Position numbers and translations under genes: made by a program. A DNA stretch of 64,000 nt from Candidatus Bathyarchaeia archaeon. Its GTDB lineage: Archaea; Thermoproteota; CALKCG01; B24. Numbering within the stretch: position 1 is the stretch's first letter; each line of letters begins with the position of its first letter. Below, one piece after another: positions 12,518-59,484 of the stretch. The notes beneath the pieces are model-generated. The model was not told the DNA's origin, ran no database searches, and was given only the letters and a program-made list of their open reading frames with translations. The stretch covers positions 96,001-160,000 of the forward strand of contig JAVZJD010000002.1 in NCBI GenBank assembly GCA_038870975.1, read 5' to 3'.

Positions 12518-15058
12518 CTAAAGTTTGAGTTTCAACGTTTTTATTTCGTTATGTGAAACTAGTATTTTAGATAAGCTTTCAATTTTACGTATTTCCCTTT
12601 CAAGTATATCCGTCTCATATATTTCTCTCGGCTTATAAGGAATTGATACTTCAGCATCGACGTTATTCCCATGTGTCTCGTAAAACCTGATTACTATTGC
12701 ATTTCCACAGTCTTCCGCTTTTTTAAGAGCTGTTACCACTATGTTTTCCGGTTTAGCTTCGAGGAATGAGAAGCTTCTAGGTAGGTTTCCAACGTGTCTG
12801 TCTTCAAATCTGCTAATCAGCGGATAGTTGAACTCGTATGCTTTCCTCACTGTTTGAGACTCCCTCCAGTCTCCTCTATGTGGATATAGTGCGAAGCTGA
12901 ACCTATGCATACCCTGATCGGCTATATTCTCCTCACGTAGGAATGCTTCTTCAGATCCACCCCATCTAGGAGGATACCTTGGACTTCTGAGTAGAGACAT
13001 TCTAACTGCGTCGCCAGCCTGATCATAGCCATATTTAGAGTCGTTCAGTATGGATAAGCCAAATTTCCCATCTTCAGAAGTATAATCCACCCATTTTTGA
13101 CATGGGGCTTCATACTTAGCTCTCTCGTAGAGTGTTGCATCTGGAGATAGAGGGCTTCTACGCTTGATGTAGCCATACGGTATTTCACAAGTCGTATAAT
13201 CGCTGTGGAAGTTGAATGGCACAGTTAACTTAGCCATTCTATGAGCCGCATGCCAGTCGACTTCAAAGTCCATGCGTATCGTCGGTAGGCCGGAGTACAA
13301 TCTAATGTACACGTTGAATGTTGAGTCCTTTCTACCGTCCTGTTTAAACCTATACTTAACCAGTACAGTAGCTCTTACAGGGCCTCTCTCTAAGACTTTG
13401 ACTTCTTCAGCCTCCCTAAGATCGACGTACTTTACACCGCCTGGTTGAGTGTATATGTAGACTTCCCAAGCGTCGAAAATAGCGGCGTCGAAATCGTAGA
13501 AGAGTGTTCTTCTACCTGGATATGGATAGTCTTCGAAAACCTGAATCCTAACACCTCCACCGCCTATGAGGTTTAACCCGAGCTCTTTATCGTAGAGCTC
13601 CTCTATTACGCCGGTCTTCTCTCCGATGGATAATTTAACCTTGGAGTTTTCAAGGATTATCTTCCCATCCAGCCTGAATACTCTAACGTCTGTTTGATAG
13701 TTCCTCCAGGCGTCTACGGGTTTAAGCCTATACACTGTGTATCCTAGCGACGGGGCTTCAGCTATGATGAGCATCTTCTTCCCATCATCTACCAGTTGTA
13801 GTGGAATACTTACACCAGCTGGGTCTAATACTTCAAAAGGCTTTTCAACGTCGGCTAATTCGACTTCTACTACGTCTCTCCTACCCCAGGACAGTGGGTT
13901 GAATATGAGCAACGGTTGCCCCTCTAATTGCGTATCCACTTTAGAGGTTATGGTTTTTAAAGCCTTATCGAGAGCTTTCGATGAGAATTCTAGAAGCTCT
14001 TTAAAATCTCTCTCACAATCTCCATATATCTCCCGTATACCGGAGCCGGATATAGTATCGTGGAATTGATGCAACATTATCTTCTTCCAAAACTCTCGCA
14101 ACTCATCTTTCGGATATTCTCCACCCACGATGCTTGCGATTAGTGAAAACCTTTCAACTTCATCGATTAAAACCTCAGACCTTCTATTGATCTGTTTAAA
14201 CCTAGATTGTGTAGTGTAAACTCCCCTGTGGTATTGAAGGTACAATTCATCGGAGACGACTGGAATATTAGCCTTACCCGAATACTGTTCAAGCGTTCTA
14301 AAGTAGTCGATAGCCCTAGTACTACATACTTTAGCCGGTAGATTCGTACTTTCAACCCACTTAGACAATGTTTCCAAGTCGCTCTTCCTAGGCCCTCCAC
14401 CGTGATCTCCAACACCGTACAGTATCAGCAGGTCTTCAATACCGTGAAGGTACTTAAGCATCATAATTTGACGGTTGAACCGTCCAATGTTCTCATCCCT
14501 AATCTCTTCACTATAGCTTCCCAAGGTTTGATGTGAAAGTATCCTCGTTCCATCCGGCGACTCCCAGAAGAATACGTTAAATGGATAGTAGACCATATCG
14601 TTCCAAGACAACTTCTGAGTTAAAAAGTACTTTATACCAGATTTAGCCATTATCTGAGGTAGAGTCCAAGCAAACCCGAAGCTATCGGGTAACCAGCCGA
14701 CTTCAACATAAGATCCAAACCTCTCCTTAAAATACCTCTGCCCATAGAGGAACTGCCTTGCTAGAGACTCGCCTGAAGGCATGTTAGCGTCAAATTCAAC
14801 CCATGAGCCGCCTACAACCTCCCAACGGCCTTCTTCAATCCTCCTCTTGATTTCTCCGAAGATTTCGGGGTAGAGCTTCTCCATAATCTCATAATAACAT
14901 GCACTGCTCTGGCAGAATGTAAACATCGGATATTCTCTCATAAAGTTTAACACAGAATTAAATGTCTCCCTACAGACTTCCAACGTCTCTTTAAATGTCC
15001 AAAGCCATTCAGCGTCTATATGAGCATGTCCAATTAAATGCCACCTAGCCATAATCAT
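12518..15058 (-). CDS. Alpha-mannosidase, GH38
   Basis: GHAHIDAEWLW, WLPDSFG, GDHGGG, HQFHDTI motifs. Confidence 0.93.
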   Translation of the reverse strand: MIMARWHLIGHAHIDAEWLWTFKETLEVCRETFNSVLNFMREYPMFTFCQSSACYYEIMEKLYPEIFGEIKRRIEEGRWEVVGGSWVEFDANMPSGESLARQFLYGQRYFKERFGSYVEVGWLPDSFGFAWTLPQIMAKSGIKYFLTQKLSWNDMVYYPFNVFFWESPDGTRILSHQTLGSYSEEIRDENIGRFNRQIMMLKYLHGIEDLLILYGVGDHGGGPRKSDLETLSKWVESTNLPAKVCSTRAIDYFRTLEQYSGKANIPVVSDELYLQYHRGVYTTQSRFKQINRRSEVLIDEVERFSLIASIVGGEYPKDELREFWKKIMLHQFHDTISGSGIREIYGDCERDFKELLEFSSKALDKALKTITSKVDTQLEGQPLLIFNPLSWGRRDVVEVELADVEKPFEVLDPAGVSIPLQLVDDGKKMLIIAEAPSLGYTVYRLKPVDAWRNYQTDVRVFRLDGKIILENSKVKLSIGEKTGVIEELYDKELGLNLIGGGGVRIQVFEDYPYPGRRTLFYDFDAAIFDAWEVYIYTQPGGVKYVDLREAEEVKVLERGPVRATVLVKYRFKQDGRKDSTFNVYIRLYSGLPTIRMDFEVDWHAAHRMAKLTVPFNFHSDYTTCEIPYGYIKRRSPLSPDATLYERAKYEAPCQKWVDYTSEDGKFGLSILNDSKYGYDQAGDAVRMSLLRSPRYPPRWGGSEEAFLREENIADQGMHRFSFALYPHRGDWRESQTVRKAYEFNYPLISRFEDRHVGNLPRSFSFLEAKPENIVVTALKKAEDCGNAIVIRFYETHGNNVDAEVSIPYKPREIYETDILEREIRKIESLSKILVSHNEIKTLKLKL

Positions 15059-15295
15059 TCACCGAAATACATCAATTATGTCTACACTATCCATATAAAA
15101 GCTTATTTTTCAGAGAAGCCGCACTGTATTCTCCAAGAGTTTTAACCACCTATTCAGAATCTTTTATTTTCTTACTGTAGATACACATTAAATTTGTGGG
15201 GCAATTAGTGTGATAATCGAAATGGGAGAAAACTTACCATTGTATGTTTTTAGGACTCAATGTTAACTTAACCCTACATGGGCTATTTACAATGT

Positions 15296-15721
15296 CTAAC
15301 CTTTAACGCTGGTCCTAATCTTGTGTTCTCCTCTAAACCTCCAGAGACCGATTCTAGGTGATAGTATCTCTATTTCAAGCTCCTCTATAACAGCATCCGA
15401 TAAAAGTATCTCCTGCTCATACGTTGAGATTATAGCATTGCAACGGATAGTCTTTGACAACCTATCTACTTCAACGACGTTTAAATCCAAAGCACTGGGG
15501 ATAAAATAGCTTAAAACTTCTCCACCAGGAGTATCTAGAGTCTCTAAAACGGCGTCGACTGGTGGTGGCCATAACTCTAAAGTCTCAGCTACTTTACATG
15601 GCAGATGTATATCTAAGCTTTCTGTAGTAAAGCCTGTGTTAAGTAGAGCTGGAGCTGTTAGTACGACATCCTTCACCACGTTTTTTATCCTCACATTCAC
15701 TCTCACTGGCAACGGCTCCAC
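15296..15721 (-). CDS. Retropepsin-like (clan AA) protein with NTG instead of DTG
   Basis: ALLNTGF and E.LLSD.....L.I pattern; 141 aa. Confidence 0.65.
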   Translation of the reverse strand: MEPLPVRVNVRIKNVVKDVVLTAPALLNTGFTTESLDIHLPCKVAETLELWPPPVDAVLETLDTPGGEVLSYFIPSALDLNVVEVDRLSKTIRCNAIISTYEQEILLSDAVIEELEIEILSPRIGLWRFRGEHKIRTSVKG

Positions 15722-15939
15722 CCTTCATAGGAACTATTCGCCCTAACTTAATACCTCTCTTCATTCTACCGAGCCTCTTCTTAGGCTTAAGCACAACGGG
15801 GCTCGTCATAAAACCGTCATATAACCTATTGAGTGATTCAACTAATTAAGTTTTGACCTTAAAACTCTCTAATATTTAGAGAAACTCAGATGTATGGATT
15901 ACTGCAGGTAGATATGTTTAAACCGCTTTAGGCAATACT

Positions 15940-17013
15940 GTGGTGGTGGGGTTTTTGAACGTTGAAGGGAGGCTTTATTCAAAGACTACGGGTTTTATGA
16001 AATCCTTCCATGGTGTTAGAAGAAACAGGGTGGACGATATATTCGATAGAAGGCTTTACATAGTATCAGAGCAAGGTATTCTCGTGGAAAACTATCTGAG
16101 GAAGCACCCTAAAATGGCGTTTAACCCTGGAGTACTACTGGAGGATAAAACATTGACTGTCTTTCCGAGGCTTATCTTTGACTACTACACGTATACATCT
16201 AGTATCGGGCTTTTCAAGCTAAACGTAGACGATTTAATAAATGGGGAGGTAGACCTCCCTGTTCACGCGAACATCATACTATGGCCTAAAATGTTATGGG
16301 AGTTTAGAGGCTGTGAAGATGCACGTACATTTAAAAGGGAAGATGGCTGTTTGATACTGCTGTATACTGGCTATGGGTATTTACATGAAAACGGTAGACT
16401 TAATACGACGATAGTTCAAGCATACGGCAGATTTGATGACTATTACAATTGCACTATGAGAAACTTCTTTAAAATCGGAACACTTGAAGGTGATGTCTTC
16501 CTGCCCAAGGCGAATAAAGACTCGGCATTCATAGACATGGAGGCAGATGAAGCAGTTATGTTGACTAGACCGCTTGTGGGAGACGTTGAAATCTGCTGGA
16601 GGTGTAGAGCAAACATACGGGAGGCAGTAATCTACGAGGAAACTATGGAGCCTGTACTACCCTTCGAAGATTGGGAGTGGAAGGTAGGCTGGTCGACGAA
16701 CGTTGTTAAAATATCTTCAAACGAGTATTTAATTGGATGGCATGGCATCCATAAGGAAGACTACTCGTATAGGAGTGGGTTGGCGTTGGTTGATCGAGAG
16801 GGGGAGTTGCTGGCTGTAAGCGACTACATACTGGCTCCAAAGGGTTTAAATGAAGAGTATGGCGATAGACCACTGGTAATATTTGGAAACGGTTTAGCGA
16901 TTTACGGGGAAATCCTCATATGGGTTGGAGGTGTAAGCGATTACGCAATAGGTTTCTTCACAACTGAGCTCGATAGAGCATTAGAATCGTTAAAATGGAT
17001 AAAGAGGAGTTAG
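15940..17013 (+). CDS. GH130-like / DUF377 glycosidase or phosphorylase
   Basis: AFNPG, GCEDAR, NKD, VIFGNG beta-propeller motifs; true start may lie downstream. Confidence 0.8.
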   Translation: MVVGFLNVEGRLYSKTTGFMKSFHGVRRNRVDDIFDRRLYIVSEQGILVENYLRKHPKMAFNPGVLLEDKTLTVFPRLIFDYYTYTSSIGLFKLNVDDLINGEVDLPVHANIILWPKMLWEFRGCEDARTFKREDGCLILLYTGYGYLHENGRLNTTIVQAYGRFDDYYNCTMRNFFKIGTLEGDVFLPKANKDSAFIDMEADEAVMLTRPLVGDVEICWRCRANIREAVIYEETMEPVLPFEDWEWKVGWSTNVVKISSNEYLIGWHGIHKEDYSYRSGLALVDREGELLAVSDYILAPKGLNEEYGDRPLVIFGNGLAIYGEILIWVGGVSDYAIGFFTTELDRALESLKWIKRS

Positions 17014-17065
17014 CATCTACTATCTACCTATTTAAAAGTTGCATAGTGTTTGGCGGAGGGGAATT

Positions 17066-18715
17066 TTAGCCTACGGATTCAAGCTCGTTTATAAGCTTTA
17101 ATCTTATGGAGAGGAGCTCCCTAGAAGTTCTAACGTATTCTGTGATGCTTCTAACCGCTAGGTTGCATAGTCCAACGGCTTCATTTAATCCCCTCTTCTC
17201 TGCGAGTAGTTTTAGCATTTCGTAGTCTTCAACACCGTCTCTTAAAGCTTCAAACCTTATCGAGTCTAGAGGACCTGACTTACCCGGGTAAACTATGAAA
17301 GCGTCTCCTGGGGGCAGTGGAAACGGATGGTGGGGTTCATTTTCAACGTCTTCAAAGGGCTTCTCAGTCCAATAGTTGTAGCCCCAGTGTAGATATCCTT
17401 CAAGCCCATACTTGAAGTTTATCCAGTGAAGTATTCTAACTTTTACGAGGGAGTAATCTATAAGTCTATTGGGGTATCTTCCAGTTGGAGCTAAGCATGT
17501 GTAAAACCAAACTTCATTACCCTTCTTTTTACGCTCTTCGTAGAAGCTCATGTTTCTATCGTAGTCGTCTAGTAGTGGGACGACTACGTTGATGTAATCT
17601 ACAAGCTGTTTACAGGTTGAGGCTTCTATCGTCCTTATCCTGGGGGCGTATTTTCTAACTAGGCTTACAATAAGCTTATAGCTTTCAGCATTACGGTCTA
17701 TAGGCTCATCTGCTATGTGTTGAAGGTAGTTATCCAATAGCCCTATGTCCTCTAGGTGGTTTTGAAGAGCTGGCATAAACTGAGATATGAATTTCTCAAA
17801 AATTGGGTTCGATACTTTAACAGGCTCCTGCACGTATGCAAGACTACCATCCCTATTCAATACGCGGTAGGATGCTGAGAGGAATTCTGGAACAGTCCAC
17901 CATCCTTCAACCGTTCTAGGGGGTCTACCCGCTAAATAGCCGCCTTCTACGATTCCTATAACGCCCGCCTCTTTGAATAGGTTAATCCAGCGGTCTAGAA
18001 GTTGGAAGTCAAATTCTAGTCCGTCATCACCTTTATAGATTCGAGTCAACTCTAGAATCGGAGTTATTATACTGCTCTGTCTGTGTTCAGCCATATTCTT
18101 TGCGTATGCTTTCAGTAGGCTCCAGTGCTCTTCACTCCAAAGCCTCACGTTGTAGAACTTACTTATATTGTATGGGCTTAGAAAGTTTGAGAGCTTTAGC
18201 GTCCTCCTATCTGGAAGGGTAATATCATGTACTTTTAAATCGATCTTCACAACCTCTTCGTGGAATCCCTTAAGCAACATTTCGCCGTGGTAGTTTCCAG
18301 GGGGAACATCCTTAGGTACGTGTACCGTCAGCCAAATCGGTTGATTTTCACCCATCCTGAGTTTAACGGCCTCTTCTTCGAGTAGTGGGTCTGGAAACAG
18401 GTCTGGGGCTTTACGGACGAGTTCTTCAGGAGGCGTATTAGGAGTATTACGCTTCACAGGTACATATCCTACAAACCTTGAATAGACTTTCGTTATCACG
18501 TACTCGTTAGACTCATGTCTAAGACTAGTAACATATACTCTGAACGTATCAACATCTTCAAATGGTCTTACTACGATTTGAGCCGCCTCATACTCGTTGC
18601 GAACAGCATCTATAGAGACCACTCTAGCGGCATCTTCAGGTTTAGCAGAGTCTTTGAAGACCTTGGTGAGAGAATCTTGAACCCACACGTCGAAGGAATC
18701 CATAACTCTACACAA
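17066..18715 (-). CDS. DUF4091-domain glycoside hydrolase (GH123-like)
   Basis: RNEYEAAQ, ADEP, W.Y.C, GYLHWGYN, PGD...YP, SIRFEALRDGVEDYE. Confidence 0.8.
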   Translation of the reverse strand: MCRVMDSFDVWVQDSLTKVFKDSAKPEDAARVVSIDAVRNEYEAAQIVVRPFEDVDTFRVYVTSLRHESNEYVITKVYSRFVGYVPVKRNTPNTPPEELVRKAPDLFPDPLLEEEAVKLRMGENQPIWLTVHVPKDVPPGNYHGEMLLKGFHEEVVKIDLKVHDITLPDRRTLKLSNFLSPYNISKFYNVRLWSEEHWSLLKAYAKNMAEHRQSSIITPILELTRIYKGDDGLEFDFQLLDRWINLFKEAGVIGIVEGGYLAGRPPRTVEGWWTVPEFLSASYRVLNRDGSLAYVQEPVKVSNPIFEKFISQFMPALQNHLEDIGLLDNYLQHIADEPIDRNAESYKLIVSLVRKYAPRIRTIEASTCKQLVDYINVVVPLLDDYDRNMSFYEERKKKGNEVWFYTCLAPTGRYPNRLIDYSLVKVRILHWINFKYGLEGYLHWGYNYWTEKPFEDVENEPHHPFPLPPGDAFIVYPGKSGPLDSIRFEALRDGVEDYEMLKLLAEKRGLNEAVGLCNLAVRSITEYVRTSRELLSIRLKLINELESVG

Positions 18716-21633: not shown

Positions 21634-22299
21634 TTGAAGGTGACTAAAATGTCTAGGAATAAGATCAGAGAATATGCTGGTTTAAGTAGGTATGGGATGT
21701 GGGGATCCGGTGAGTTTGGAGATATCCCCGGAAGACCTAATCCTTATACGGTGTTATCTGATGAAACGAGGCTTGCTATAACTGTGCTACTTTGTTTAAA
21801 GGGACCGTTGACGGCTAAGCAGATAGCCGATGAATTAGAGCTGGCTCAGAGTACTGTTTTAGACCATATCAATAAGTTAAAGGAAGCAATGGTAATTAAA
21901 GAAGTTGAAGTTTCAGAGAAGAAGTATAAACGTGAAAAATACTATGATATAGACATAGTGCCATATTTTACAGACGAAAGAGAAGAGATCTATAAGAGGA
22001 TAAGTAAGTATGCTGATATACTTAAGCAAACAACGTTAATAGTTTTCGAGAAGTGTCTAAATGAAATATCTGAGTTTCTTGATACTACTCTAATGGCAAA
22101 GCATGGAATGACGATTGAGAAAGACGAAGTGAAGTTTCTTATCTTCTCTGAACTTATGAGAATCGTGCAAGATTACTTCTCTGAGAAAGGTGTCTTCAAG
22201 GATTCGCTTCAAACCGTCAAAAGATACTACCTTTACATACCACTTCAAAGAGTAAATATTCGAAGAGATGAGAAAGCTCTAAGAGATAAGCCGCAGTAA
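21634..22299 (+). CDS. ArsR-family winged-helix transcriptional regulator
   Basis: LSDETRLAI...TAKQIADELELAQSTVLDHINKL. Confidence 0.85.
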   Translation: MKVTKMSRNKIREYAGLSRYGMWGSGEFGDIPGRPNPYTVLSDETRLAITVLLCLKGPLTAKQIADELELAQSTVLDHINKLKEAMVIKEVEVSEKKYKREKYYDIDIVPYFTDEREEIYKRISKYADILKQTTLIVFEKCLNEISEFLDTTLMAKHGMTIEKDEVKFLIFSELMRIVQDYFSEKGVFKDSLQTVKRYYLYIPLQRVNIRRDEKALRDKPQ

Positions 22300-22544
22300 T
22301 CTTCAATAGAGCTAGTATGCTGGATAGAAACGGTCTTCACAAGTCAAAAGTATCGGGGTAAGGGTTTTGCCACGTCTGTAGTTTCAAAAACCGTGGAGAA
22401 CGCCTTTAAACGTTACAACGTAGAATATGTAGGGTTAGGAGTACGTAGCGACAATACTTCTGCAAAACGTGTCTATGAAAAGATAGGTTTAAGAAGCATA
22501 GGGATAGATGCTGGCTGAACATGAACTTAGAATTTATCCCATGA
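22300..22544 (+). pseudogene. GNAT acetyltransferase C-terminal fragment
   Basis: WIETVFTSQKYRGKGFATSVV...LGVRSDNTSAKRVYEKIG (motifs A and B); in frame after the ArsR TAA stop; frameshifted near its end. Confidence 0.75.
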
Positions 22545-22657
22545 CCTGAATTTCTTCTACGGAGGGTTTTCAACCGTAGCTACTCTTCAATGTTTGCCGA
22601 TAGATTTACACACCTTTAATAATTAGATATAAATACGTGGTAAATTCATAAAGACAG

Positions 22658-23962
22658 ATGAATATGTCAATGACATATGTTGGCGATGATGTTACTAAAG
22701 TACGCGTAAGTAAATGGATGGCTAAGTTGGGGTGGCTTCAAATCCCTAAGGAGATTAGACGTGAGTCTGGTCTTGTAAAGGTGAGAATTGGTGGGGATGT
22801 TTACGAGGGTAGGCTTGACAACCGTGGGAGGCTTTTCTGTAAACGGTTTAAGGGTTTTCTAAGAGAGGGCTTAATCGTCGAAGTAAAACTCCATGAAGAG
22901 GGTTATGATGTTTCCCCAGCTTCAGAGCAGGCTGTTCAAGAAACTCAAGCATCCAAGGAATCGGCAGTCGTTGAACAGATTAAAGTTGAGGAGAAACACT
23001 ATTTGAAATGTCCGTCCTGTTACAAGGTTTTATATTTGACAGACTCTGAGTTCAATAAGCATCTTGACGAGTGTAAGAGAGAGAAATACGAAAATGCTAA
23101 GGAGTTGTTGGAGAAGCTTAAGACTGAGAAGGGCTTTAGAGAAGGTTCTAAGATTTTCTTAAGAGAGCATGGAGAGCTTGTAGAGGTTTCAGAGCAGGAA
23201 GCCATTGAGTACATTATACGTGAGAATAACATACATCGTTTGGTTATTGAAAATCCGCCGTTTCCAGTGCTTAAGATGGAAATCGACGCCAAACTCTTCA
23301 TGGATTTTCTAAAGCTTGTAAATGAGTTTGGCGATGAAGTTGCCTTCAAAGCAACGTATAGTGGTTTAAGCGTTAGAATGATGAATCCATCTCACGTAAT
23401 GCTCATCGATGCAACGATACCTATACAGATTATGGATAAGTATGAGTTGACGGATGAGTTTAACATCGCCTTAAATATTGAAGAGGTGTTGAAAAGCTTT
23501 AAACCTAGGAAGGGGGACAAGTTGACGCTTACCGCTGGTAGATTGGAACGCGTCAAAATATCATGTGGTAACGTAGCCAGGAAGTTTGAGCAACCTGACA
23601 TCCAATTGGATGAATTGCCTCCGTTAAAAGTGGATTTTGCAGCGTCCTTCACGGCGCCTGCAAATGAAATCTACAGGATAATGTCGAGTCTTGCCGATGA
23701 ATACACCATAAAGATATCCGTCGACGATTCCGTGTGGTTTAAGGGGAGAAACGGTGAAGGAGTATTAGATTCCCGGGGGTTGCTGGATAAAAGTGGTCGT
23801 GCTGAAGGTAGTTATAGTATAAGCTACCTCCTAGACGTATTCAAGCATATTAGAAACGTAGCTAGAATAGTTAAAGTAGAGTTTGCGGAGAATAAACCTA
23901 TGCGTATAACCGCTATGGAACCCGTTAATGTAACAGTTTACATAGCTCCATACGTTGAATGA
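22658..23962 (+). CDS. PCNA (sliding clamp) paralogue with ~200-aa N-terminal extension (AbrB-like domain + C2HC zinc finger)
   Basis: aa ~204-434: DEVAFK...GLSVRMMNPSHVMLID, YSISYL, EFAENKPM, YIAP = PCNA; aa 118-139 CPSC-x13-HLDEC. Confidence 0.85.
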   Translation: MNMSMTYVGDDVTKVRVSKWMAKLGWLQIPKEIRRESGLVKVRIGGDVYEGRLDNRGRLFCKRFKGFLREGLIVEVKLHEEGYDVSPASEQAVQETQASKESAVVEQIKVEEKHYLKCPSCYKVLYLTDSEFNKHLDECKREKYENAKELLEKLKTEKGFREGSKIFLREHGELVEVSEQEAIEYIIRENNIHRLVIENPPFPVLKMEIDAKLFMDFLKLVNEFGDEVAFKATYSGLSVRMMNPSHVMLIDATIPIQIMDKYELTDEFNIALNIEEVLKSFKPRKGDKLTLTAGRLERVKISCGNVARKFEQPDIQLDELPPLKVDFAASFTAPANEIYRIMSSLADEYTIKISVDDSVWFKGRNGEGVLDSRGLLDKSGRAEGSYSISYLLDVFKHIRNVARIVKVEFAENKPMRITAMEPVNVTVYIAPYVE

Positions 23963-23966
23963 CTTT

Positions 23967-26591
23967 CTACTCTACGATTTTAGATACCCCATTTATCTTA
24001 TCCACTTGATAAAGTGTGTCTGCTACTTCCTCCAGCTCTCTATCGTGTGTAATTATCACCATTTGAGGCACTACCGCCCCCTCTCTGAAGAAGCTTTTAA
24101 CAACTTCCACAAGCTCCCTCCTCCTCTCCTCATCTAAATGTATCGTAGGCTCATCCATTATGATCGTTGAAAGCATTCCTGCAAGAGCTTTAGCTATAGC
24201 CAATCTTAAAGCTATTGCGATGGCAACCTTCTCACCGCCGCTGAGTAATGAGAGAGGCGTAGTTTCACCACCTCTCATAACGGTAACCTCTAAATCCTCA
24301 TCGACTGCTATCCCTGTTACGTCGAGGTTGAAACGTTCAACGTATCTAGTTGCGAGTTCAGATATGTAGGGGGTAAGCCTCTGCCTCAGCATCCTCTGAA
24401 CACCGTCTTTTGAAAATGCTCCTCTAATCTTCTCTAGTTTGGATTTAAAGTCTTCGATTTTATCGCATTTAGCTTTAAGATAAGATATTTCACTCTCAAG
24501 CCGTTTAATCTCAACCTCAAAACTAGCCCGTTTTCTCTCCTCATCATTGAGTTGTGTCTCTAAGTTTTCAAGCTTCGCTCTGCATTTTACCAGCTCCTTC
24601 TGGAGAGAATCGAATACTCTCTTAACTTCTTCATGCCTCTTAGAATCATAACCCAAGTTGTTAATAGACTCTTCAAGCCTCTTCCCCTCCTCTTCAAGCT
24701 TGAGCTTCCTACTGACGTTTTCCTCGAAGATCTTGGCTTTCTCCTCGTATTTATCGGCTATCGGTTTAAGCCTATCAAACCTCTCCTTCTTGCTTCGAAG
24801 AGCCTTTAGCTCCCCCTCAGGGTCCCTCGGTTTATAGCCGAGGCCTCTAATAAGCTCATCAGCTTCTCTTTGAATTTGAACTAAAGCCTCCTCCACCTTG
24901 GAAAGCCTTTCTCCAATTTCTCCACGCAGTTTATCAATCTTCCTAAGGATAATGTTTACTTCACGGGTCTTCTCCGCTAAGCTCCTTCTACCTGTTTCCA
25001 ATTCTCTAGATAGCTTCTCAATGTTATCTACGTCTGCAGACAGTTTGAGTAGGGCATCTATACTTCTCCTAATATCTTCTCTTAAGATTTCCAGTTTCCT
25101 CCTCTCCTCTACAGCGTAAGTACGTCTACTCTTTAAAGAATCCAATTCTTCGAGTATTTCCCGTTTAGCCTGCTCCCTATGCTGAGGGGTCAATCTAGTC
25201 CTACAGAGGGGGCATATGTCAAACTTATCTAGACTATTGAAGTCTTGAGTTAACTTATTGATTCTACCATCGATCCAACCGATTTCACCATCTTTCTCTT
25301 TAATAGACTCTTCAATCTTCCTATTTTTCTCCTCAAATTCCGCCAGCTTTTCATTTAATACCTGCTTAGACGGCTTAGGTAGAAGTCTTTCAGCTTTCTT
25401 CAATAGATTAGATAACTCATCCTCTTTCGCTTTCAATTCTGTAGCTAAATTTTCAACATCTGAAACGGCTTTAGCCGCTCTACTATTTAGAGCTATAGGG
25501 TCATCTGGCAGATCAACACTCGCTAAATCTGTTCCAGTTTTAGATGCGTAGTTGAATTCCGTGATTTTTCTAAGGCTTTCTTTTATCCAGCCTTCAGCTT
25601 CATCCATCAGTATCAATTTATCCCTTAGGTCGCCTTCTTCTCTACCATACTCCTGGAGGTCTCTAACGACTTTTACATAGCCCTCTAAAAGGTTAATATT
25701 TCCAATTTCAGGTTCTAGTTTTTCAACCTCCTCTCTAGCTTTCTTACATTCTTCGAGTTCTTTTACGATTTCTACAAGTCTTTCCTCTACATTACTTAAA
25801 TCTCGGTGAACAATATCGTACTCCTTCTTCAGGTTGTTGTAGATCTGCTCTTTCTCATCTAAGGATTGTTTTTCCCCGCTGATTAATTCGTATTCTTTCT
25901 CGAGTTTTTCAACTCCCTCCTTTAAAACACCTATCTCTCTCTTCAACTCTTCCACGGTTTTAACGCACTCGTCGTAGTTACGCTTCTTCTCCTCCAACCG
26001 CGCGCTCCTATCACGAACCTCTTTCTCAATGTCGCTCTTCAACTTCTCCACATGGTTGATTATTTCACGCATATTTTCCCATGCTCTTTCAAAAGCATCG
26101 ATACCGATCATCCTACCTATTAGTTTCTTCCTTTCAGCCGGCATGGCTTCAACAAGGCTTGTAATTTCACCCTGACGGATGAATATCGAGTTTAACAGCG
26201 TCTTACTATCCAGTTCAAGCAACTTTAAAACCTCCTGTCTTACTTGTTTTGCTGAACGGGCGATATAGCCTAAATCGCTTCTTCTAAGCGAGGCATCTAC
26301 GCGTCCACCCCTCGTCCTAGTCCACTGCACTAAGTACTCTCTATTGTCGGCTTCAAAGACAAGGGCGATCTCAGCTTCATTCGCTCCTCTTCTTATCAAG
26401 TCGTCAACGTTCTCCCCCCTGGTTTTTACGTCTTTTTCAAATCCGAGAAATGCGTGTATCACAGCATCCATGATTGCCGTTTTTCCAGCTCCATTAGGTC
26501 CCACTATGGCAGTTACACCTAGGGGAAAGTCTAACTCAGTGTTTTCATGGGATAGGAAATTTTTCAGTTTGAGCCTTTTTAATACGATCAT
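23967..26591 (-). CDS. rad50: DNA double-strand break repair ATPase Rad50
   Basis: GPNGAGKT Walker A, CPLC zinc hook within coiled coil, LSGGE signature, MDEPT, ITHD. Confidence 0.95.
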   Translation of the reverse strand: MIVLKRLKLKNFLSHENTELDFPLGVTAIVGPNGAGKTAIMDAVIHAFLGFEKDVKTRGENVDDLIRRGANEAEIALVFEADNREYLVQWTRTRGGRVDASLRRSDLGYIARSAKQVRQEVLKLLELDSKTLLNSIFIRQGEITSLVEAMPAERKKLIGRMIGIDAFERAWENMREIINHVEKLKSDIEKEVRDRSARLEEKKRNYDECVKTVEELKREIGVLKEGVEKLEKEYELISGEKQSLDEKEQIYNNLKKEYDIVHRDLSNVEERLVEIVKELEECKKAREEVEKLEPEIGNINLLEGYVKVVRDLQEYGREEGDLRDKLILMDEAEGWIKESLRKITEFNYASKTGTDLASVDLPDDPIALNSRAAKAVSDVENLATELKAKEDELSNLLKKAERLLPKPSKQVLNEKLAEFEEKNRKIEESIKEKDGEIGWIDGRINKLTQDFNSLDKFDICPLCRTRLTPQHREQAKREILEELDSLKSRRTYAVEERRKLEILREDIRRSIDALLKLSADVDNIEKLSRELETGRRSLAEKTREVNIILRKIDKLRGEIGERLSKVEEALVQIQREADELIRGLGYKPRDPEGELKALRSKKERFDRLKPIADKYEEKAKIFEENVSRKLKLEEEGKRLEESINNLGYDSKRHEEVKRVFDSLQKELVKCRAKLENLETQLNDEERKRASFEVEIKRLESEISYLKAKCDKIEDFKSKLEKIRGAFSKDGVQRMLRQRLTPYISELATRYVERFNLDVTGIAVDEDLEVTVMRGGETTPLSLLSGGEKVAIAIALRLAIAKALAGMLSTIIMDEPTIHLDEERRRELVEVVKSFFREGAVVPQMVIITHDRELEEVADTLYQVDKINGVSKIVE

Positions 26592-27742
26592 GCTTCCACA
26601 CCCTCTATGGATTCTTCAACTATTTTCTTAGCTTGGTCTACTTCATCTTTCGATAAATACTCGTAGAGTTTCCACGCCAGATCCACGTACTTACCATCGT
26701 CTAACTTCTGAGCGTGTAAATATTCGCCTATAAGCCTCCTCCTTAAATCTGTGGTGTCTTCTTCGTGAAGTCTTACCATTTGTACTTGCTGAACGGTTGT
26801 TAAGTCTTTAAAGAATACATTGTACTTCAACGTTCTATTTTTAAGTAGAGCATTGAGGCTGTTTAGAATCTGCCTAGTGTTTATATTTCTACCGCTCACG
26901 TATATGTGAAGTATGGGCATCTTCCCCCGAGCCAGATTTAAGTACTTAAACAGGGATTCTTGAAGGCTCTCCCTGGCTAAATCCAACTCGACTTCATACT
27001 GAGGTCTAACATCGAGGTCTATCTTATGTACCCTCGGGTCTTCTCCATCAAAATCTACTATGTAGAATCCTCTTCCGTCTTTAACCCACGATTTTACCTC
27101 ATCCCTCCTCATAATCTCTATCGCACCTGCGTATGCAAAGTATCCCTTCTCAAACTTCGCCAAAGCCCTTGAATGTATGTGTCCGAAGGCATAGTAGGAT
27201 GCTTTCTTAGGTAGATCGGCCTCTTTAAGCTCATATGCTCCTTCGAAGGGTAGGTATTTATCCACTCCCTGATGTGCTACGAGTATCCTCTTAGAGTAGC
27301 TGTCAGCCACTTGGTCGAATTTCTGGAGCTCCGTTTTAAGCAGTTCTACGCTTCTCCCACGGAGATTAGAAATCCCTGCGATTAATACTCCATCTACTTC
27401 TAACCACTCTAATTCCCCTACTCCTAAAACTTTAACTTCTTCAAATAGACTGTGCGGAGGTAGTCCACGCCTCTTTGGGAAATCATGGTCTCCGAGAACC
27501 GTTATGAGCTTCACTCTACCCTGGAGCTTCCTTAAATTCTCCTTGAAGTTTTTTAAAGCTTTTATCGGAGGAGTGGGGGAGTCGAAGAGGTCTCCAGAGT
27601 GTATGAGAACGTCAACACGCTCCTCAAGAATTCTCTCAACTACCTCGTTAAACACGTCGTATATGTCGTTTTCCCTTTCATCTAAGTTGTACTGTCTTCT
27701 TCCAAGATGTGTATCTGATACATGTGCAATCCTCAAAATCAA
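26588..27742 (-). CDS. mre11: DNA double-strand break repair nuclease Mre11
   Basis: SDTHLG, GDLFD, GDHD, FGHIH phosphoesterase motifs; overlaps rad50. Confidence 0.93.
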   Translation of the reverse strand: MILRIAHVSDTHLGRRQYNLDERENDIYDVFNEVVERILEERVDVLIHSGDLFDSPTPPIKALKNFKENLRKLQGRVKLITVLGDHDFPKRRGLPPHSLFEEVKVLGVGELEWLEVDGVLIAGISNLRGRSVELLKTELQKFDQVADSYSKRILVAHQGVDKYLPFEGAYELKEADLPKKASYYAFGHIHSRALAKFEKGYFAYAGAIEIMRRDEVKSWVKDGRGFYIVDFDGEDPRVHKIDLDVRPQYEVELDLARESLQESLFKYLNLARGKMPILHIYVSGRNINTRQILNSLNALLKNRTLKYNVFFKDLTTVQQVQMVRLHEEDTTDLRRRLIGEYLHAQKLDDGKYVDLAWKLYEYLSKDEVDQAKKIVEESIEGVEA

Positions 27743-29331
27743 ACACCCTCAACGATACTTTTTATCAGCCTCCTCTCCCTATTCACTTTTTCAACTAGGG
27801 AGGTACTTTCATTTTCAGCCTCCTTAACAGCCATCTTAAGCCTACCGATTATATCGATGTCGGCACCACCTTCCACTGTTTCTCTAGTTCTAACCCTCAC
27901 CATGACAGGTGCCTTAGTGACTTCACCCACTACGATGGCCTCTCCTACGTTGAGCCCTGGGAGGTCTTTCAAAAGGTCTTCACTCATCCTTTCGGAGCTT
28001 TTTCTAACTGCGTCTTGATCTTCCGGATTTGTCATCCTGAGAATTATCTGACTGTTGCATTGGCTTAAAACGTCGGGGTCTATCTTATGCGGTCTTTGAG
28101 TGATCACCGTTAGAAAGAGGCCAAACTTCCTACCTTCAGCTGCGACCTTCTTTATGACGTTCTTCGATAAGGTCTTCTCTCTGTTGGGTATGAATCTATG
28201 TGCTTCCTCGATGAAGAGGAAAACTGGGTAGCTGTACTTTTGAGCTCTTACCACTTCGAAAGCATCGTTGAGGATTCTAAACGCCATGTAATCTGCGACT
28301 TCATCATCAAGGCCTGAAAGGTCAACCACCGATATATGTTGAGGCTTAAGCAGTCTATAGATGTCAGTAGTAACATCTCCGAAAACTCTTATCCTCTGTA
28401 GTCTTCTCACGTACTTTAAAGCGGCTAGAGAATGTTGATCTCCAGCCTTCTCAAGCCTATTTATGAGGTCGTCTAGTCTATAGTCTCCCTCTTCCTTGAG
28501 TTTGCCGAGCACTTTCCCGATGGCGTTAACTATATTGGTCCACGACTCGCTTATTCCGCAAACCGTTGTAATTTCATCTATTGATAGGTCTGAAAACTTT
28601 ACCTCATAAGTCTCTACTCTACCTATCTGCTCCTCACCATACCTTCCTATGCTTTCACGCGTTCTAAACACTGTGATTCTACTGGAGAATATTCCCCCTG
28701 CTCTCTTACGGGATATGAATACGTAATCTGCATGTGGATCTAAGACTATAATCGTCGCACCTTTTTTAAGCAGCTCTTCAAGTAAAACACCAGCTGCGTA
28801 GCTTTTACCAGCTCCAGTCTGTGCAAGTATGGCTAAATGTCTTCTAAAGCCCCTTATTGAGATGCTTACAGGGACATCGGACCTAGTTATCAAGTAGCCT
28901 ATATGTAGTCCTTCCTCAGGCGGGTAAGAGTAGAATTCGCTTAAAAGGTTTGAAGGGGCTCTATATACTACATTACCTGGGTGAATCGCCCTCCTAGGCT
29001 GTAAAACCTCTCCTTTCAATGCAAACCCGAGGACTCTCGCTTTAGCTATAAGCCTCCTATCTACGAGTTGAGCTTTTATCAGCCTCTCAGCAGCCTCAAG
29101 ATTGGGTTTGTTTTCAAGGTCTAAGGCTAAGCTTAACGACGTTATCTCGTATATTTGCGCTATTATCGGAACTTCGAATTCAAACCCATCGACAACCTCC
29201 CTAGATTTTACAACTACGTACTCCCATCTAGGTGGATGTTTATCCTCATCCGCTATGAAGTAGAATTGGGATGGACTTGCCTCTCCAATCACATAGCCTA
29301 AACGCTCCAACTGCTCATGGGAATCTGACAC
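27739..29331 (-). CDS. herA: HerA helicase/ATPase
   Basis: HAS barrel, HLAILAQTGAGKS, DPHADY, IEEAH, EGRKFG, TQRP. Confidence 0.93.
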   Translation of the reverse strand: MSDSHEQLERLGYVIGEASPSQFYFIADEDKHPPRWEYVVVKSREVVDGFEFEVPIIAQIYEITSLSLALDLENKPNLEAAERLIKAQLVDRRLIAKARVLGFALKGEVLQPRRAIHPGNVVYRAPSNLLSEFYSYPPEEGLHIGYLITRSDVPVSISIRGFRRHLAILAQTGAGKSYAAGVLLEELLKKGATIIVLDPHADYVFISRKRAGGIFSSRITVFRTRESIGRYGEEQIGRVETYEVKFSDLSIDEITTVCGISESWTNIVNAIGKVLGKLKEEGDYRLDDLINRLEKAGDQHSLAALKYVRRLQRIRVFGDVTTDIYRLLKPQHISVVDLSGLDDEVADYMAFRILNDAFEVVRAQKYSYPVFLFIEEAHRFIPNREKTLSKNVIKKVAAEGRKFGLFLTVITQRPHKIDPDVLSQCNSQIILRMTNPEDQDAVRKSSERMSEDLLKDLPGLNVGEAIVVGEVTKAPVMVRVRTRETVEGGADIDIIGRLKMAVKEAENESTSLVEKVNRERRLIKSIVEGV

Positions 29332-30598
29332 GTCTATACCCCCTTGGAGTAGCAGTTCTACCGACTATTTCTTCAAACTTGGGGAGGTATATACGTTCGA
29401 AAGTCTTTCTTCCGAGCTTTACTCTTCTGTGGACGGCTGTCAACCATATGTTGTAGTCTTCTAAGCCACCGTAACCTGCTGATATTAACCTCAAAACGTC
29501 GTCTATATCTACGTCAACAGCTTCGCTAAAATCGACTTCAGAGGTATTCTTCTCTATTCCAAAAACCCATGCTGGAGCATCCACCCTCATGGGCGTGTCA
29601 AAAATTGACGGAAGAACGTAGAATGAAACAACCGCTGGTAGTTTCGGTAGTTGTTCAATAACGTGCGACGCCCATTTGATGAAATCAGCATCCTCCGAAG
29701 ATATTGGATGGGTCAACTGTAGGTATTTCACAGGGTCTGTATCGATTAATCTATAGGCTTTTCTAGCCCCAGAGGGAGGGCTTAAAATTAAAGGCATACT
29801 GTGTCCAGGTTTTCTAGCATAGCTCATTATAATTAGGAAATCCGGCTTGAGAGTGGCATACTCTATTATAAACTCTCTAATGGGCATAGGAATTCTACCC
29901 AATATGCTACTAAGCCTCTTCCTATCTAAAGCCATGCTTAGATATTTTTCAACTTCCAATACGTTTAAATTAAACTCCTCAGCCAGTCTAAAGATTATAC
30001 TCCTCATTAAAAACTCTCTGAGGAATGAAGATCTACTCTCCTTACTCAACCCAATTATAGGGGCTCTTCTTTCTTTCGCAGTTTGGAAAAGTTTGATCAG
30101 TGTTTCAAAGTACTTTACCATGAAATCCCTACTGTACGCTGAGTCTACTTCGAGAGGGATGTGTGCTAAACGCCCATAGATGGAGCCATCTATGAGAATA
30201 TAGCCTTCAAAACCCTCTTTAAGCGCTTCTAAAACGACTCTATGCTCCAACCACTCCATCATTTTACCAACAACCGCTCTGTAATTTTCATCGGAGCTGT
30301 AGTCGAAACCCGTATGTACACTTCTGAATTTGACATTGGTATTCGACAGAGCGAGAGCTCTTACGACGTAGAAAATGCCGCCGTTAGACATAACGGTGTA
30401 CTGTAGGCTACCGTCTACTGCAAGAACTCTAAATTCATCGGATGAAGATTTTGGGAGTTCTTTAAACCTCCAATATTTTTCAAACTCCCCTCTAAGGTGA
30501 ATTGCGAGAGTGGATGAAGTTGGTTTAGAATAAGCTTCATCTATCCACACTTTCTTAACCGCAAGGTCCTGCATGTATAAGTCGAGGAATTCAGGCAC
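29315..30598 (-). CDS. nurA: NurA nuclease
   Basis: AVDGS, LIDGSI, LSKES, Y.IWL..VH motifs; first gene of the operon. Confidence 0.9.
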   Translation of the reverse strand: MPEFLDLYMQDLAVKKVWIDEAYSKPTSSTLAIHLRGEFEKYWRFKELPKSSSDEFRVLAVDGSLQYTVMSNGGIFYVVRALALSNTNVKFRSVHTGFDYSSDENYRAVVGKMMEWLEHRVVLEALKEGFEGYILIDGSIYGRLAHIPLEVDSAYSRDFMVKYFETLIKLFQTAKERRAPIIGLSKESRSSFLREFLMRSIIFRLAEEFNLNVLEVEKYLSMALDRKRLSSILGRIPMPIREFIIEYATLKPDFLIIMSYARKPGHSMPLILSPPSGARKAYRLIDTDPVKYLQLTHPISSEDADFIKWASHVIEQLPKLPAVVSFYVLPSIFDTPMRVDAPAWVFGIEKNTSEVDFSEAVDVDIDDVLRLISAGYGGLEDYNIWLTAVHRRVKLGRKTFERIYLPKFEEIVGRTATPRGYRRVRFP

Positions 30599-30770: not shown

Positions 30771-31058
30771 CTACTTATGGATTCTTCCAATAATTCTCTC
30801 CACCTGCTCCGTTAACGAATTGAGTAAACGTATAGCTTCATCTACTCTTTTGATTTCTTCGGGTTTAGGTGGCTTTTCTATACCGCAGAAATACCTCCAG
30901 TATAAGTATTGAGCCAACGTTATTCTCCTCCTGAAAAGTCTATGAAGCATTATGTCGACGGTTCCCATGTACTTCCTACCTATGAAGCTTCCGGCAAACG
31001 CCATTCCAAGGAGATACCCGATTATAACAAACCCTATATTCTGCAATAACTCGATCAT
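30771..31058 (-). CDS. Small hypothetical membrane protein
   Basis: N-terminal hydrophobic helix, 95 aa ORF with plausible start. Confidence 0.55.
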   Translation of the reverse strand: MIELLQNIGFVIIGYLLGMAFAGSFIGRKYMGTVDIMLHRLFRRRITLAQYLYWRYFCGIEKPPKPEEIKRVDEAIRLLNSLTEQVERIIGRIHK

Positions 31059-31198
31059 ATCGCCTCAAATTTCAATCTAACACTGTCTCTTAGTTAAACG
31101 TTTACTGAGACATTGAAAATATGAAGAGGAACTAGGACCTATTCTTTAGATGGAATGTCATATTCTGTTTGGAAGCACTTATGATTGGATTGAGAGCT

Positions 31199-31418
31199 TC
31201 AGCTTTTAGGTAGAGCTTCTAGGCTTAAATATCCGCTAAATCTAACCTTGTAAAGATGATGAATTACATCCTTCCAGTCAATATTATCTAATCCAGGGGG
31301 AAGTCTATTGTTTTCAGCTATGTGTACGTGTCCTATACTGCGACCTGCTCTAAGTATGGCGTTGCATATACTTCTCTATTCTATGTTTATGTGGAATGTA
31401 TCCAGTAGGAGTTTGACG
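31199..31418 (-). pseudogene. Sugar epimerase (D-tagatose/psicose 3-epimerase-like) C-terminal remnant
   Basis: Manual translation VKLLLDTFHINIE*RSICNAILRAGRSIGHVHIAENNRLPPG..IDW...GYLSLE; N-terminal half absent. Confidence 0.75.
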
Positions 31419-31447
31419 GTTAAATTAGGTATCGAGGGTCGTCAAGA

Positions 31448-31668
31448 ATGCTGAACTATGGGGAGCGCTTTAGGAGGTACATGTCTTTCAAAGACGTGGA
31501 TAGACCTCCGTTTTATGAGTTTTTGGGTTTCTGGACGGAGACCATGAATAGATGAAGGGCGAAGGGCTTCCATCTGGGGTTGACGTTTACGATTACTTTG
31601 ACTTCGATAAACGTGAGACGGTCCCTATAGATTATAGGCCGATACCGAGGTTTGTACCCAAGACTTTA
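31448..31668 (+). pseudogene. UroD-superfamily N-terminal remnant
   Basis: MLNYGERFRRYMSFKDVDRPPFYEFLGFWTETMNR, then frameshifted KGEGLP...YFDFD...PIPRF; truncated. Confidence 0.65.
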
Positions 31669-32014
31669 AATGGGGTAAACTCTGTCTATCGGGCGTCGAT
31701 AAGACGGCATCCAGTTTTAGTAAAACCACTTCTCTATGCTCAAGCAGACTTATTAGCCACTTTCATCCAGGGATTCCATCGGAGACGGAAAGCTTCATTG
31801 GAAAAAGGATCAGTCATCATCTAATTTTACGTTATCTCTACCTATGCATCGCTCCTCTTAAATTAGACGCTTTTGCCGCATACACATTTAAGATATTCTT
31901 TAAGAGGCCATCATCAGTAATCCTTGCTTGAACTCAGCCATAAAGAATACCCGTAGACTTCAGACAACTAGCATTTAAAAATATTTAAAAAGTTAGAATC
32001 CTTTAACTTTTACG

Positions 32015-32317
32015 GTGAGTTTTGTGAAAGTTGAGATTTTGGAAATGATTGTGAGGTCTTTAGCTGAACGTCCGAAGTCTATTAAGGAGCTTTCAGAAGA
32101 GCTTGGTGTAGGATGGAAGACCTGCCAGAGGTATCTTAAAAGCCTACAGCGTATAGGCGTACTAGTCGAAATAAAGACTAGGGGGGAGAGTCTATTCATG
32201 AGCCGTCAACCCTATAGACCGAAGCTTCTAACGGTACCTAAGATTAGAGTGGGGGAGAGCTTTAAGATAGTTGATGTAACACCTCCGAACGACGATGAGG
32301 TGGAGGTTCTCATGTGA
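32015..32317 (+). CDS. Small winged-helix DNA-binding protein
   Basis: SIKELSEELGVGWKTCQRYLKSL; 4-nt overlap with the downstream protease. Confidence 0.75.
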   Translation: MSFVKVEILEMIVRSLAERPKSIKELSEELGVGWKTCQRYLKSLQRIGVLVEIKTRGESLFMSRQPYRPKLLTVPKIRVGESFKIVDVTPPNDDEVEVLM

Positions 32318-32751
32318 AATGTACGCTTAGACTTGCAGATGGATATAACTATCTTAAAGAAGGCGGTTTAGAGCCATATCCAGTGATTCCAATATATCTG
32401 TATAGACGTGAATTGGAGAAGGTTATATCAGTCGATGCTCTAGTAGATACTGGATTTGATGGAGCTTTAATTCTTTCCCGCCCTCTTGGATATTACATTT
32501 CCAAACATGTTGAACCTGAGGGGTTTGAAGAGCTTGATGCCGCTGGAATAGGCATACCGTGCGATGTGTACGTCTTAAATGTACAAATCGGTAAAAGGTG
32601 GTTTAAAGTTAAAAGTCACCTGCCAAGAGCTGGAGATTTAGGGACAATAGTAGGTCGAATTTTGCTGAACAGGATTCATCTATGTTTGAGAGGACCTGAA
32701 TCTATGCTTTACCTTGCAAAGCCCAATCTTCATCCTAAGACGGGTCTCTAA
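32314..32751 (+). CDS. Clan AA aspartic protease-like protein
   Basis: ALVDTGFDG and IVGR motifs. Confidence 0.8.
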   Translation: MKCTLRLADGYNYLKEGGLEPYPVIPIYLYRRELEKVISVDALVDTGFDGALILSRPLGYYISKHVEPEGFEELDAAGIGIPCDVYVLNVQIGKRWFKVKSHLPRAGDLGTIVGRILLNRIHLCLRGPESMLYLAKPNLHPKTGL

Positions 32752-34413: not shown

Positions 34414-34624
34414 TAAAACACCCTCAATTGAAATGTATCACATAAAAGTGATATTTTATCTTATACGTCTAAGAATCTCTCCACCCAACACTAGTCCGAT
34501 CGTTCTAATAACATCACGTAGTACATGAGAAGTAACTTTAAATGCGTAGAGAACATTTAAGGGTTGAATTTATCCATTTTACACCGTAATTGGCGTCTAA
34601 TGTAATAGCTCTAGAGAAGGGTTT

Positions 34625-59467: not shown

Positions 59468-59484
59468 TCTTTAAATTTTTACCT

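Follow-up and report, generated by a model that had tools for sequence, protein, structure and literature searches.

As a rule, a sliding clamp is a bare ring that slides freely once it has been loaded onto DNA and owes its specificity to its partners, and archaeal PCNAs are normally stand-alone proteins of ∼250 residues. Why, then, should a PCNA-like protein carry 203 additional residues in front of its clamp fold? The question is raised by a gene in a 64,000-nt stretch of DNA (hereafter the window, with positions counted from its first letter) from an uncultured hot-spring Candidatus Bathyarchaeia archaeon (assembly GCA_038870975.1, contig JAVZJD010000002.1, positions 96,001 to 160,000 of the forward strand). 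There, an uninterrupted reading frame of 434 codons at 22658–23962 (+) joins a β-barrel, a linker, a C2HC zinc finger and a small module to a divergent PCNA (Table 1). Our analysis shows that this fusion is a genuine PCNA paralogue, conserved and very rare, whose domain architecture is new. As to its function, we see roughly an even chance that it is an accessory, lineage-restricted, DNA-tethered subunit of a PCNA-type clamp with its own nucleic-acid-binding head. The host genome is called G000 below, three congeners are G001, G002 and G003, and P0009 and P0010 are two distant metagenomic members of the family.

An earlier reading of the locus, made from the sequence only, had let the PCNA fold begin at residue ∼204, and homology to PCNA indeed extends from residues ∼204–210 to the C-terminus. 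The NCBIfam model NF002221 matched residues 209–433 over profile positions 8–247 of 248 (E = 9e-29), and archaeal PCNAs of the PDB matched this part at E = 2e-17. The comparison covered PF00705 and PF02747, the PRK01115 models and TIGR00590, as well as the structures of Archaeoglobus fulgidus PCNA (1rwz), Thermococcus kodakarensis PCNA2 (3lx2) and Sulfolobus PCNAs (2nti, 3aix), and the fusion departs from all of these by an N-terminal extension of 203 residues that comprises three folded modules. The structure was predicted with AlphaFold2 (AF2) from a 48-row alignment of 8 family members and 40 canonical PCNAs from related genomes, and the full-length model had a mean predicted local distance difference test score (pLDDT) of 90.4. 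In an earlier run on a 6-row alignment the PCNA part remained unfolded, and the model was redone with the 40 canonical PCNAs added; the N-terminal 203 residues folded confidently in both runs. Foldseek superposed the predicted structure on PCNAs with TM-scores of 0.80–0.85 over ∼247 columns, after the shallow 6-row model had returned only poorly superposed PCNAs, and the prediction contains the two topologically identical domains of a PCNA protomer. Moreover, the loop FEQPDIQLDELPPLKVDF aligns with its interdomain connecting counterpart in the PCNAs of Thermococcus and Pyrococcus, and the C-terminus reads IAPYVE against LAPRVE in canonical proteins. By these alignments, both the loop and the C-terminal motif of the docking site for PCNA-interacting protein (PIP) peptides are retained. 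The four predicted inner helices carry on average 8.0 lysines and arginines (net charge +2.8) in the 8 family members versus 6.6 (net +1.4) in the 40 canonical PCNAs. Whether the genome also holds a canonical pcn had been left to be confirmed; it does, in the form of a 248-residue PCNA on the other contig of the host (G000 contig 1), which passes the cut-offs of NF002221 (244 versus 239 bits) and TIGR00590. Because the host thus has a canonical PCNA as well, the fusion copy is an accessory one.

The N-terminal part begins with the barrel, which belongs to no Pfam family that hmmscan of residues 1–92 could detect at E up to 10, including B3, EcoRII-N and AbrB/SpoVT. Among 48,161 PDB representative chains, the only non-clamp neighbours listed for the barrel, with two independent models, were DNA-binding pseudobarrels, namely the plant B3 domains of VRN1 (4i1k), FUS3 (6j9b), ARF1 (4ldx) and RAV1 (1wid), and domains of the restriction enzymes EcoRII (EcoRII-N, 3hqf), BfiI (BfiI-C, 3zi5), NgoAVII (4rd5) and LlaJI. 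The single-chain barrel of ∼85 residues superposes on such pseudobarrels over 82–95 residues and is basic (in 8/8 family members); it lacks sequence membership in the B3 and EcoRII-N Pfam models. In the structure models, then, the barrel appears to be of the B3/EcoRII-N DNA-binding pseudobarrel type. It had previously been called AbrB-like on account of the motifs GWLQIPKEIR and LDNRGRL, which are present at residues 25–34 and 53–59. AbrB-type domains carry a G-R-I/V-x-I-P-K loop, and MraZ has two such motifs in one chain; the fusion likewise has an AbrB-like motif twice in a single chain, and its G-W-L-x-I-P-K-E-I-R and G-R-L-F-x-K-x-F resemble the loop of the AbrB/SpoVT/MazE/MraZ group (PF04014 clan), a resemblance that is visual only. 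No internal duplication of the barrel halves was detectable by hhalign (residues 12–53 against 54–90, probability 4%), and AbrB-type chains were absent among the best structural matches listed for the barrel, an absence that does not exclude such a family. Hence the general class, a small DNA-binding barrel, was rightly recognized, but membership in the AbrB family was not upheld, as there is no HMM match and the neighbours are B3, EcoRII-N and BfiI-C. A word-index search for stand-alone barrel proteins (query P0009 residues 1–75, shorter lengths) found none, and the ESM Atlas returned no usable match for residues 8–92 or 1–203.

The finger follows the linker. In the AF2 model, DSSP assigned strands at residues 114–117 and 124–127 and a helix at 129–157, with pLDDT of 89–96. 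The four zinc ligands of C118-P-S-C121-x13-H135-x3-C139, a pattern named already from the sequence, are invariant in 6/6 homologues of 67–98% identity. The order C-x2-C-x(n)-H-x3-C and the predicted ββα fold are those of UBZ4 fingers, and the C-x2-C-x13-H-x3-C spacing and the H-L/V-D-x-C end are likewise shared with the fingers of RAD18, WRNIP1 and Pol kappa. The nearest PDB sequences were the C2HC finger of ZNF512 (E = 0.037), RAD18 (0.13 and 0.29), Pol kappa (0.16) and WRNIP1 (1.4); 4 of the 9 nearest were UBZ4 fingers, and none of these E-values is significant. A profile search with the finger improved ZNF512 to E = 0.0022 and gave 0.37 for WRNIP1 and 1.6–4.1 for RAD18, so that the profile strengthened only ZNF512 and did not improve the UBZ4 matches overall. 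Pfam returned only sub-threshold noise for the finger and the small module (ZNF512_C2HC 0.011, DnaA_N-like 0.1). Thus, of the designation ‘UBZ4-like’, the C2HC ligand pattern on a ββα fold holds, the similarity to UBZ4 sequences is not significant (E = 0.13–1.4, not improved by the profile), and the term remains one of pattern resemblance. With regard to possible ligands, a ThiF/MoeB-type E1-like gene (238 bits) lies on G000 contig 1 (317611–318613), divergent from a 97-codon open reading frame (ORF) with a weak match to the ubiquitin family (15.7 bits, E = 0.02), and the two may be a SAMP/Urm1-type or sulfur-carrier pair. No E2 was found in the host, but the positive control of that search was silent. 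With a ThiF-type E1, a weakly ubiquitin-like ORF and no E2 detected, a finger that reads a ubiquitin-like mark is neither supported nor excluded by the genome sequence.

Directly before the PCNA fold stands the small module, to which DSSP assigned strands at residues 165–170, 173–177 and 195–198 and a helix at 179–189 in the AF2 model. No significant Pfam match was obtained for residues 161–203 and no fold could be assigned. It shows 91% identity and a ratio of nonsynonymous to synonymous substitution rates (dN/dS) of 0.03–0.04 to relatives that are only 67% identical overall. With barrel, finger and small module predicted in front of the PCNA fold, the models agree with the sequence-only reading of a PCNA paralogue that carries extra N-terminal modules of recognition type.

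Such an unusual protein could be an assembly artefact or a recent chance fusion whose real product starts near residues 204–207, and two observations fit this idea: residue M207, where the PCNA fold starts, is invariant, and G001 encodes a 221-residue form without residues 15–229. Far from being absent from relatives, as an artefact or chance fusion would be, the frame has uninterrupted homologues in independent metagenomes. Full-length homologues of 426–434 residues with 67–98% identity came from JGI, ENA, Logan and NCBI data, the closest (98%) being a metagenome-assembled genome (MAG) from isolate JZ-2_201705_bins_140, and the same unbroken frame is found in MAGs and in at least five independent metagenome contigs, the metagenome scan itself having returned only the relatives of 67% and 98% identity. 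Five such contigs (L016–L020) carry it in the same neighbourhood, with the conserved order GH123, DUF3467, ArsR and fusion, and rad50, mre11, herA and nurA on the opposite strand. Against the relatives of 67% identity, dN/dS was 0.11–0.13 for the N-terminal 203 residues and ∼0.10 for the PCNA part, values that are approximate because dS exceeds 1; across all domains it ranged from ∼0.03 to 0.25, and indels in the N-terminal part are in frame, such as one of 5–6 residues in the linker. The substitution pattern shows that all parts of the fusion are translated and under purifying selection. Moreover, when residues 1–205 were compared exhaustively with 1.8 billion representatives by phmmer, two distant members came to light whose N-terminus is 34–39% identical to that of the fusion and which both also score as divergent PCNAs. 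P0009 (433 residues, on a 6.2-kb JGI contig) consists of the barrel, a linker, the small module and PCNA without a finger, and P0010 (379 residues, on a 2-kb Logan contig) of barrel, linker and PCNA only; the linker is long and strongly acidic in both. Because these two share barrel, linker and PCNA without the finger, those three parts are, on the sequences compared, the conserved core of the family, and the finger is an addition in the subclade of the window protein. Since the short form in G001 also lacks the strand and helix with which the PCNA fold opens, it represents a deletion and no natural short isoform. Since homologues, dN/dS, synteny and the distant members all keep the N-terminus, an assembly artefact is ruled out and a translation start near residue 204 is unlikely, and the two together make a scarcely credible account of the gene. 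The fusion is therefore real and kept in relatives, as independent metagenomes, the same synteny, purifying selection and the shared barrel-PCNA architecture indicate.

Several observations weigh against an accessory clamp. The protein reached 100.5 bits with NF002221 versus a cut-off of 239, and 27.9 versus 99.1 with TIGR00590; PF00705 was borderline, with 20.1 versus 20.3 in hmmscan and 22.3 bits, just above the cut-off, in a six-frame search of the genome. Maximum-likelihood analysis grouped the 8 family members in a single clade (SH-aLRT 99) with a long branch, apart from the clade in which the PCNA of the host stands with those of its genus, family and order. That the gene arose by a recent duplication of the host pcn was considered and rejected; because the family clade falls outside the host PCNA clade, the fusion gene is no recent copy of it. 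The low model scores and the long branch imply that clamp function may have changed. In addition, the gene is deleted, truncated or pseudogenized in all three congeners. G001 has an in-frame deletion in which codon 14 is joined to codon 230 at a DDVV microhomology, and in G003 a 5′ truncation left only codons 281–410, which abut GH123. The locus of G002 is otherwise fully syntenic and retains a 3′ remnant of the last 48 codons, with stops, directly after rad50 (L073, contig 45, 2628–2761); a second remnant, codons 149–297 with TAG stops, lies in an unrelated neighbourhood (L012, contig 1, 1451–1840). Its repeated loss or breakage in such close relatives means that the role of the gene, whatever it may be, is dispensable. 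The deletion variant of G001 is encoded by an ORF on contig 20 (L005, 1498–2163, minus strand), and the same protein (P0014) occurs on three contigs in NCBI and JGI; likewise, a 71-residue ORF (P0011/P0012) from a remnant of the G002 type recurs on five contigs.

If the PCNA fold no longer works as a clamp, it could serve as an oligomerization platform that presents several barrels, and the protein would be a transcription-type regulator or a DNA-bound scaffold. Barrels of the B3 and AbrB types are classic domains of transcription factors, the PCNA part stays below all curated PCNA thresholds, and the gene lies just downstream of an ArsR-type regulator. However, the connecting loop, the basic residues of the inner helices and the C-terminal motif are retained, features that are specific to clamps and needless for a mere scaffold, and purifying selection acts on the PCNA part with the same strength as on the barrel. 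We therefore hold a regulator or scaffold to be very unlikely.

The distribution of the family bears on another explanation, in which a mobile element or defence island left the gene behind or carries it as cargo, and the gene would serve replication of the element or defence instead of host repair. The family is extremely patchy and narrow, with ∼10 clusters among 5.8 billion proteins. It was confined to the genus of the window both in a sample of 401 genomes from the phylum and in 185,579 species genomes; searched against the genome contigs of species representatives, its profile matched only MAGs of this genus, and P0009 was not found there. Divergent copies of PCNA are frequent in archaeal viruses and plasmids, and a B3-like barrel is a module with which restriction enzymes typically recognize DNA; such an origin would also fit the long branch, which lies outside the host PCNA clade, the frequent decay of the gene and the structural similarity of the barrel to EcoRII, BfiI, NgoAVII and LlaJI. 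On the other hand, the family profile found no relatives in 2.9 million viral contigs, no family member had a PHROG or PADLOC match, and no tRNA, bounding direct repeats or integrase were seen around the block. GC content resembles that of the flanks without a compositional shift, and the neighbours are housekeeping-type repair and sugar-utilization genes plus a peptidase. These searches do not bear out the suggestion, made in the sequence-only reading, that the gene was acquired from a mobile element, and we regard this explanation as distinctly unlikely.

The position of the gene next to nurA-herA-mre11-rad50 had suggested a link to resection of double-strand breaks. The convergent arrangement is as described, the four minus-strand neighbours being identified by Pfam, and the ORF coordinates agree with the spacing noted from the sequence, as the fusion stop codon ends at 23962 and the rad50 ORF including its stop starts at 23967, which leaves 4 nt between the stops. 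In Pyrococcus furiosus, PCNA binds Mre11 through a C-terminal PIP-like Mre11 peptide and stimulates Mre11-Rad50 (Hogrel et al. 2018, PMC6009593). The fusion, too, is a PCNA-family protein, but it is tied to the resection machinery by gene position alone. The subunits of the eukaryotic 9-1-1 clamp are likewise PCNA-fold proteins with extra appendages. By analogy with these two systems, the fusion could be a dedicated damage clamp for the adjacent Mre11-Rad50-HerA-NurA. The 4-nt spacing belongs to an arrangement kept in relatives of 67% identity, and the genus of the window (g1) is the only one in the order to have the fusion or this nurA-herA-mre11-rad50 copy. A second pair of NurA (386 residues) and a HerA-like protein (518 residues), on G000 contig 2 at 58249–60596, ∼38 kb upstream and outside the window, is common to all 17 genomes of the order. 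Because fusion and operon are both confined to the genus while the other pair is order-wide, the block may have arrived, or been kept, as one piece. Yet the convergent genes are not transcribed together, shared ancestry may be all that the conservation reflects since synteny extends equally to all nearby genes, and rad50, mre11, herA and nurA are intact at ∼72–88% identity in G001, G002 and G003 despite the broken fusion. A motif search of the four proteins found no Thermococcales-type or terminal PIP motif; its only PIP-consensus match, QESLFKYL at residues 261–268 of Mre11 (window 26939–26962, minus strand), is separated from the C-terminus by 124 residues and probably matches by chance, within a folded domain. 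Beyond adjacency and the joint restriction to one genus, the proposed link to resection found no support, and from the sequences it is possible but unproven. We consider a dedicated damage clamp rather unlikely, and give no better a chance to its mechanistic part, in which barrel and finger would place the protein at DNA ends and Mre11-Rad50 or HerA-NurA would be stimulated or positioned there. A bolder version would be an archaeal damage-specific clamp that combines in one chain the 9-1-1/PCNA and Rad18-type reader functions which eukaryotes divide between separate proteins, with the ring anchored by its barrel at broken or resected DNA, a UBZ4-type finger reading a SAMP/Urm1-type mark and the whole cooperating with the co-inherited Mre11-Rad50-HerA-NurA; this appears highly improbable.

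We favour instead the accessory, DNA-tethered clamp because the inner helices retain at least as many lysines and arginines as those of canonical PCNAs, the barrel is basic and confidently predicted, the core architecture is shared, dN/dS is low, the assemblies are independent and a canonical PCNA is present. According to this model, the PCNA part would assemble into a PCNA-type ring, alone or mixed with the canonical PCNA, and the predicted ring would offer docking sites of PIP type. Three tethered barrels per ring, together with the fingers in this subclade, would then keep the ring at certain DNA sites or structures, or direct it to them, without free sliding, and the resulting stationary docking platform could serve a non-essential task in DNA repair, recombination or genome maintenance. 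Cooperation with the neighbouring Mre11-Rad50-HerA-NurA is possible in this model and, if real, would be optional.

Some features of the surroundings complete the description of the locus (Table 1). Two A/T-rich boxes upstream of the start codon could, from their sequence, be an archaeal promoter for a leaderless or short-leader mRNA. The protein encoded by the ArsR-type winged helix-turn-helix (wHTH) gene matches PADLOC models for wHTH proteins of the Csa3/CasR type (E = 1.6e-11), with its winged helix alone, and no CRISPR-Cas genes were seen nearby. The GNAT frame between ArsR and the fusion is a decaying gene; frames at the same place are longer in G001 and G002. Genes for sugar and peptide utilization (12518–18715 and 33013–37081) surround the repair block: GH38, GH130 and GH123 to its left, an M81 peptidase and one more GH38 to its right. 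In the relatives of 67% identity the M81 gene directly follows nurA, without the small ORFs and the wHTH gene found in the window at 30771–32751.

Table 1. Position and character of the fusion gene, its parts and its neighbours in the window
Feature	Window position	Strand	Residues	Remarks
Fusion gene (barrel, linker, C2HC finger, small module, PCNA)	22658–23962	+	1–434	434 residues; stop codon included in position
TATA-like boxes, A/T-rich, TTTAATAATT and ATATAAATA	22615–22635	+		∼25–40 nt 5′ of ATG; direct sequence reading
Basic single-chain β-barrel	22685–22921	+	10–88	Two GxL-x-(I/C)PK-like half-motifs; predicted B3/EcoRII-N-type DNA-binding pseudobarrel fold
Linker, variable and disordered	22922–22987	+	89–110	pLDDT 42–54; alignments
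C2HC zinc finger, then long helix	22988–23128	+	111–157	C118, C121, H135, C139; ββα
Small ββαβ module	23138–23266	+	161–203	Directly before PCNA fold; most conserved part of protein
PCNA part, complete two-domain fold, divergent	23267–23959	+	204–434	Interdomain connecting loop, basic inner helices, APYVE C-terminus; sequence and fold matches
ArsR-type wHTH gene	21634–22299	+		Upstream of fusion, co-oriented; Pfam
GNAT acetyltransferase remnant	22300–22518	+		72 codons, stop-to-stop frame; C-terminal part, no start, no N-terminal half
Resection operon, convergent with fusion	23967–30598	−		Pfam
rad50	23967–26591	−		
mre11	26588–27742	−		
herA	27739–29331	−		
nurA	29315–30598	−		

Compared with the archaeal PCNAs, the fusion family stands as a separate long-branch clade, rare, limited to one genus and often decayed, with 100 bits against a cut-off of 239. 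Unless biochemistry reveals a new clamp mechanism, its general importance is limited, as this is a tiny, easily lost family of one genus and two metagenomic outliers. For the family itself, the structure models place a predicted B3/EcoRII-type pseudobarrel in a new archaeal setting, together with a small and very conserved module. A clamp that carries its own DNA-binding barrel and C2HC finger would depart from the usual design, as a ring that could be parked or targeted, and if it were true that the fusion works with Mre11-Rad50-HerA-NurA, it would be an archaeal counterpart of the damage-specific clamps.

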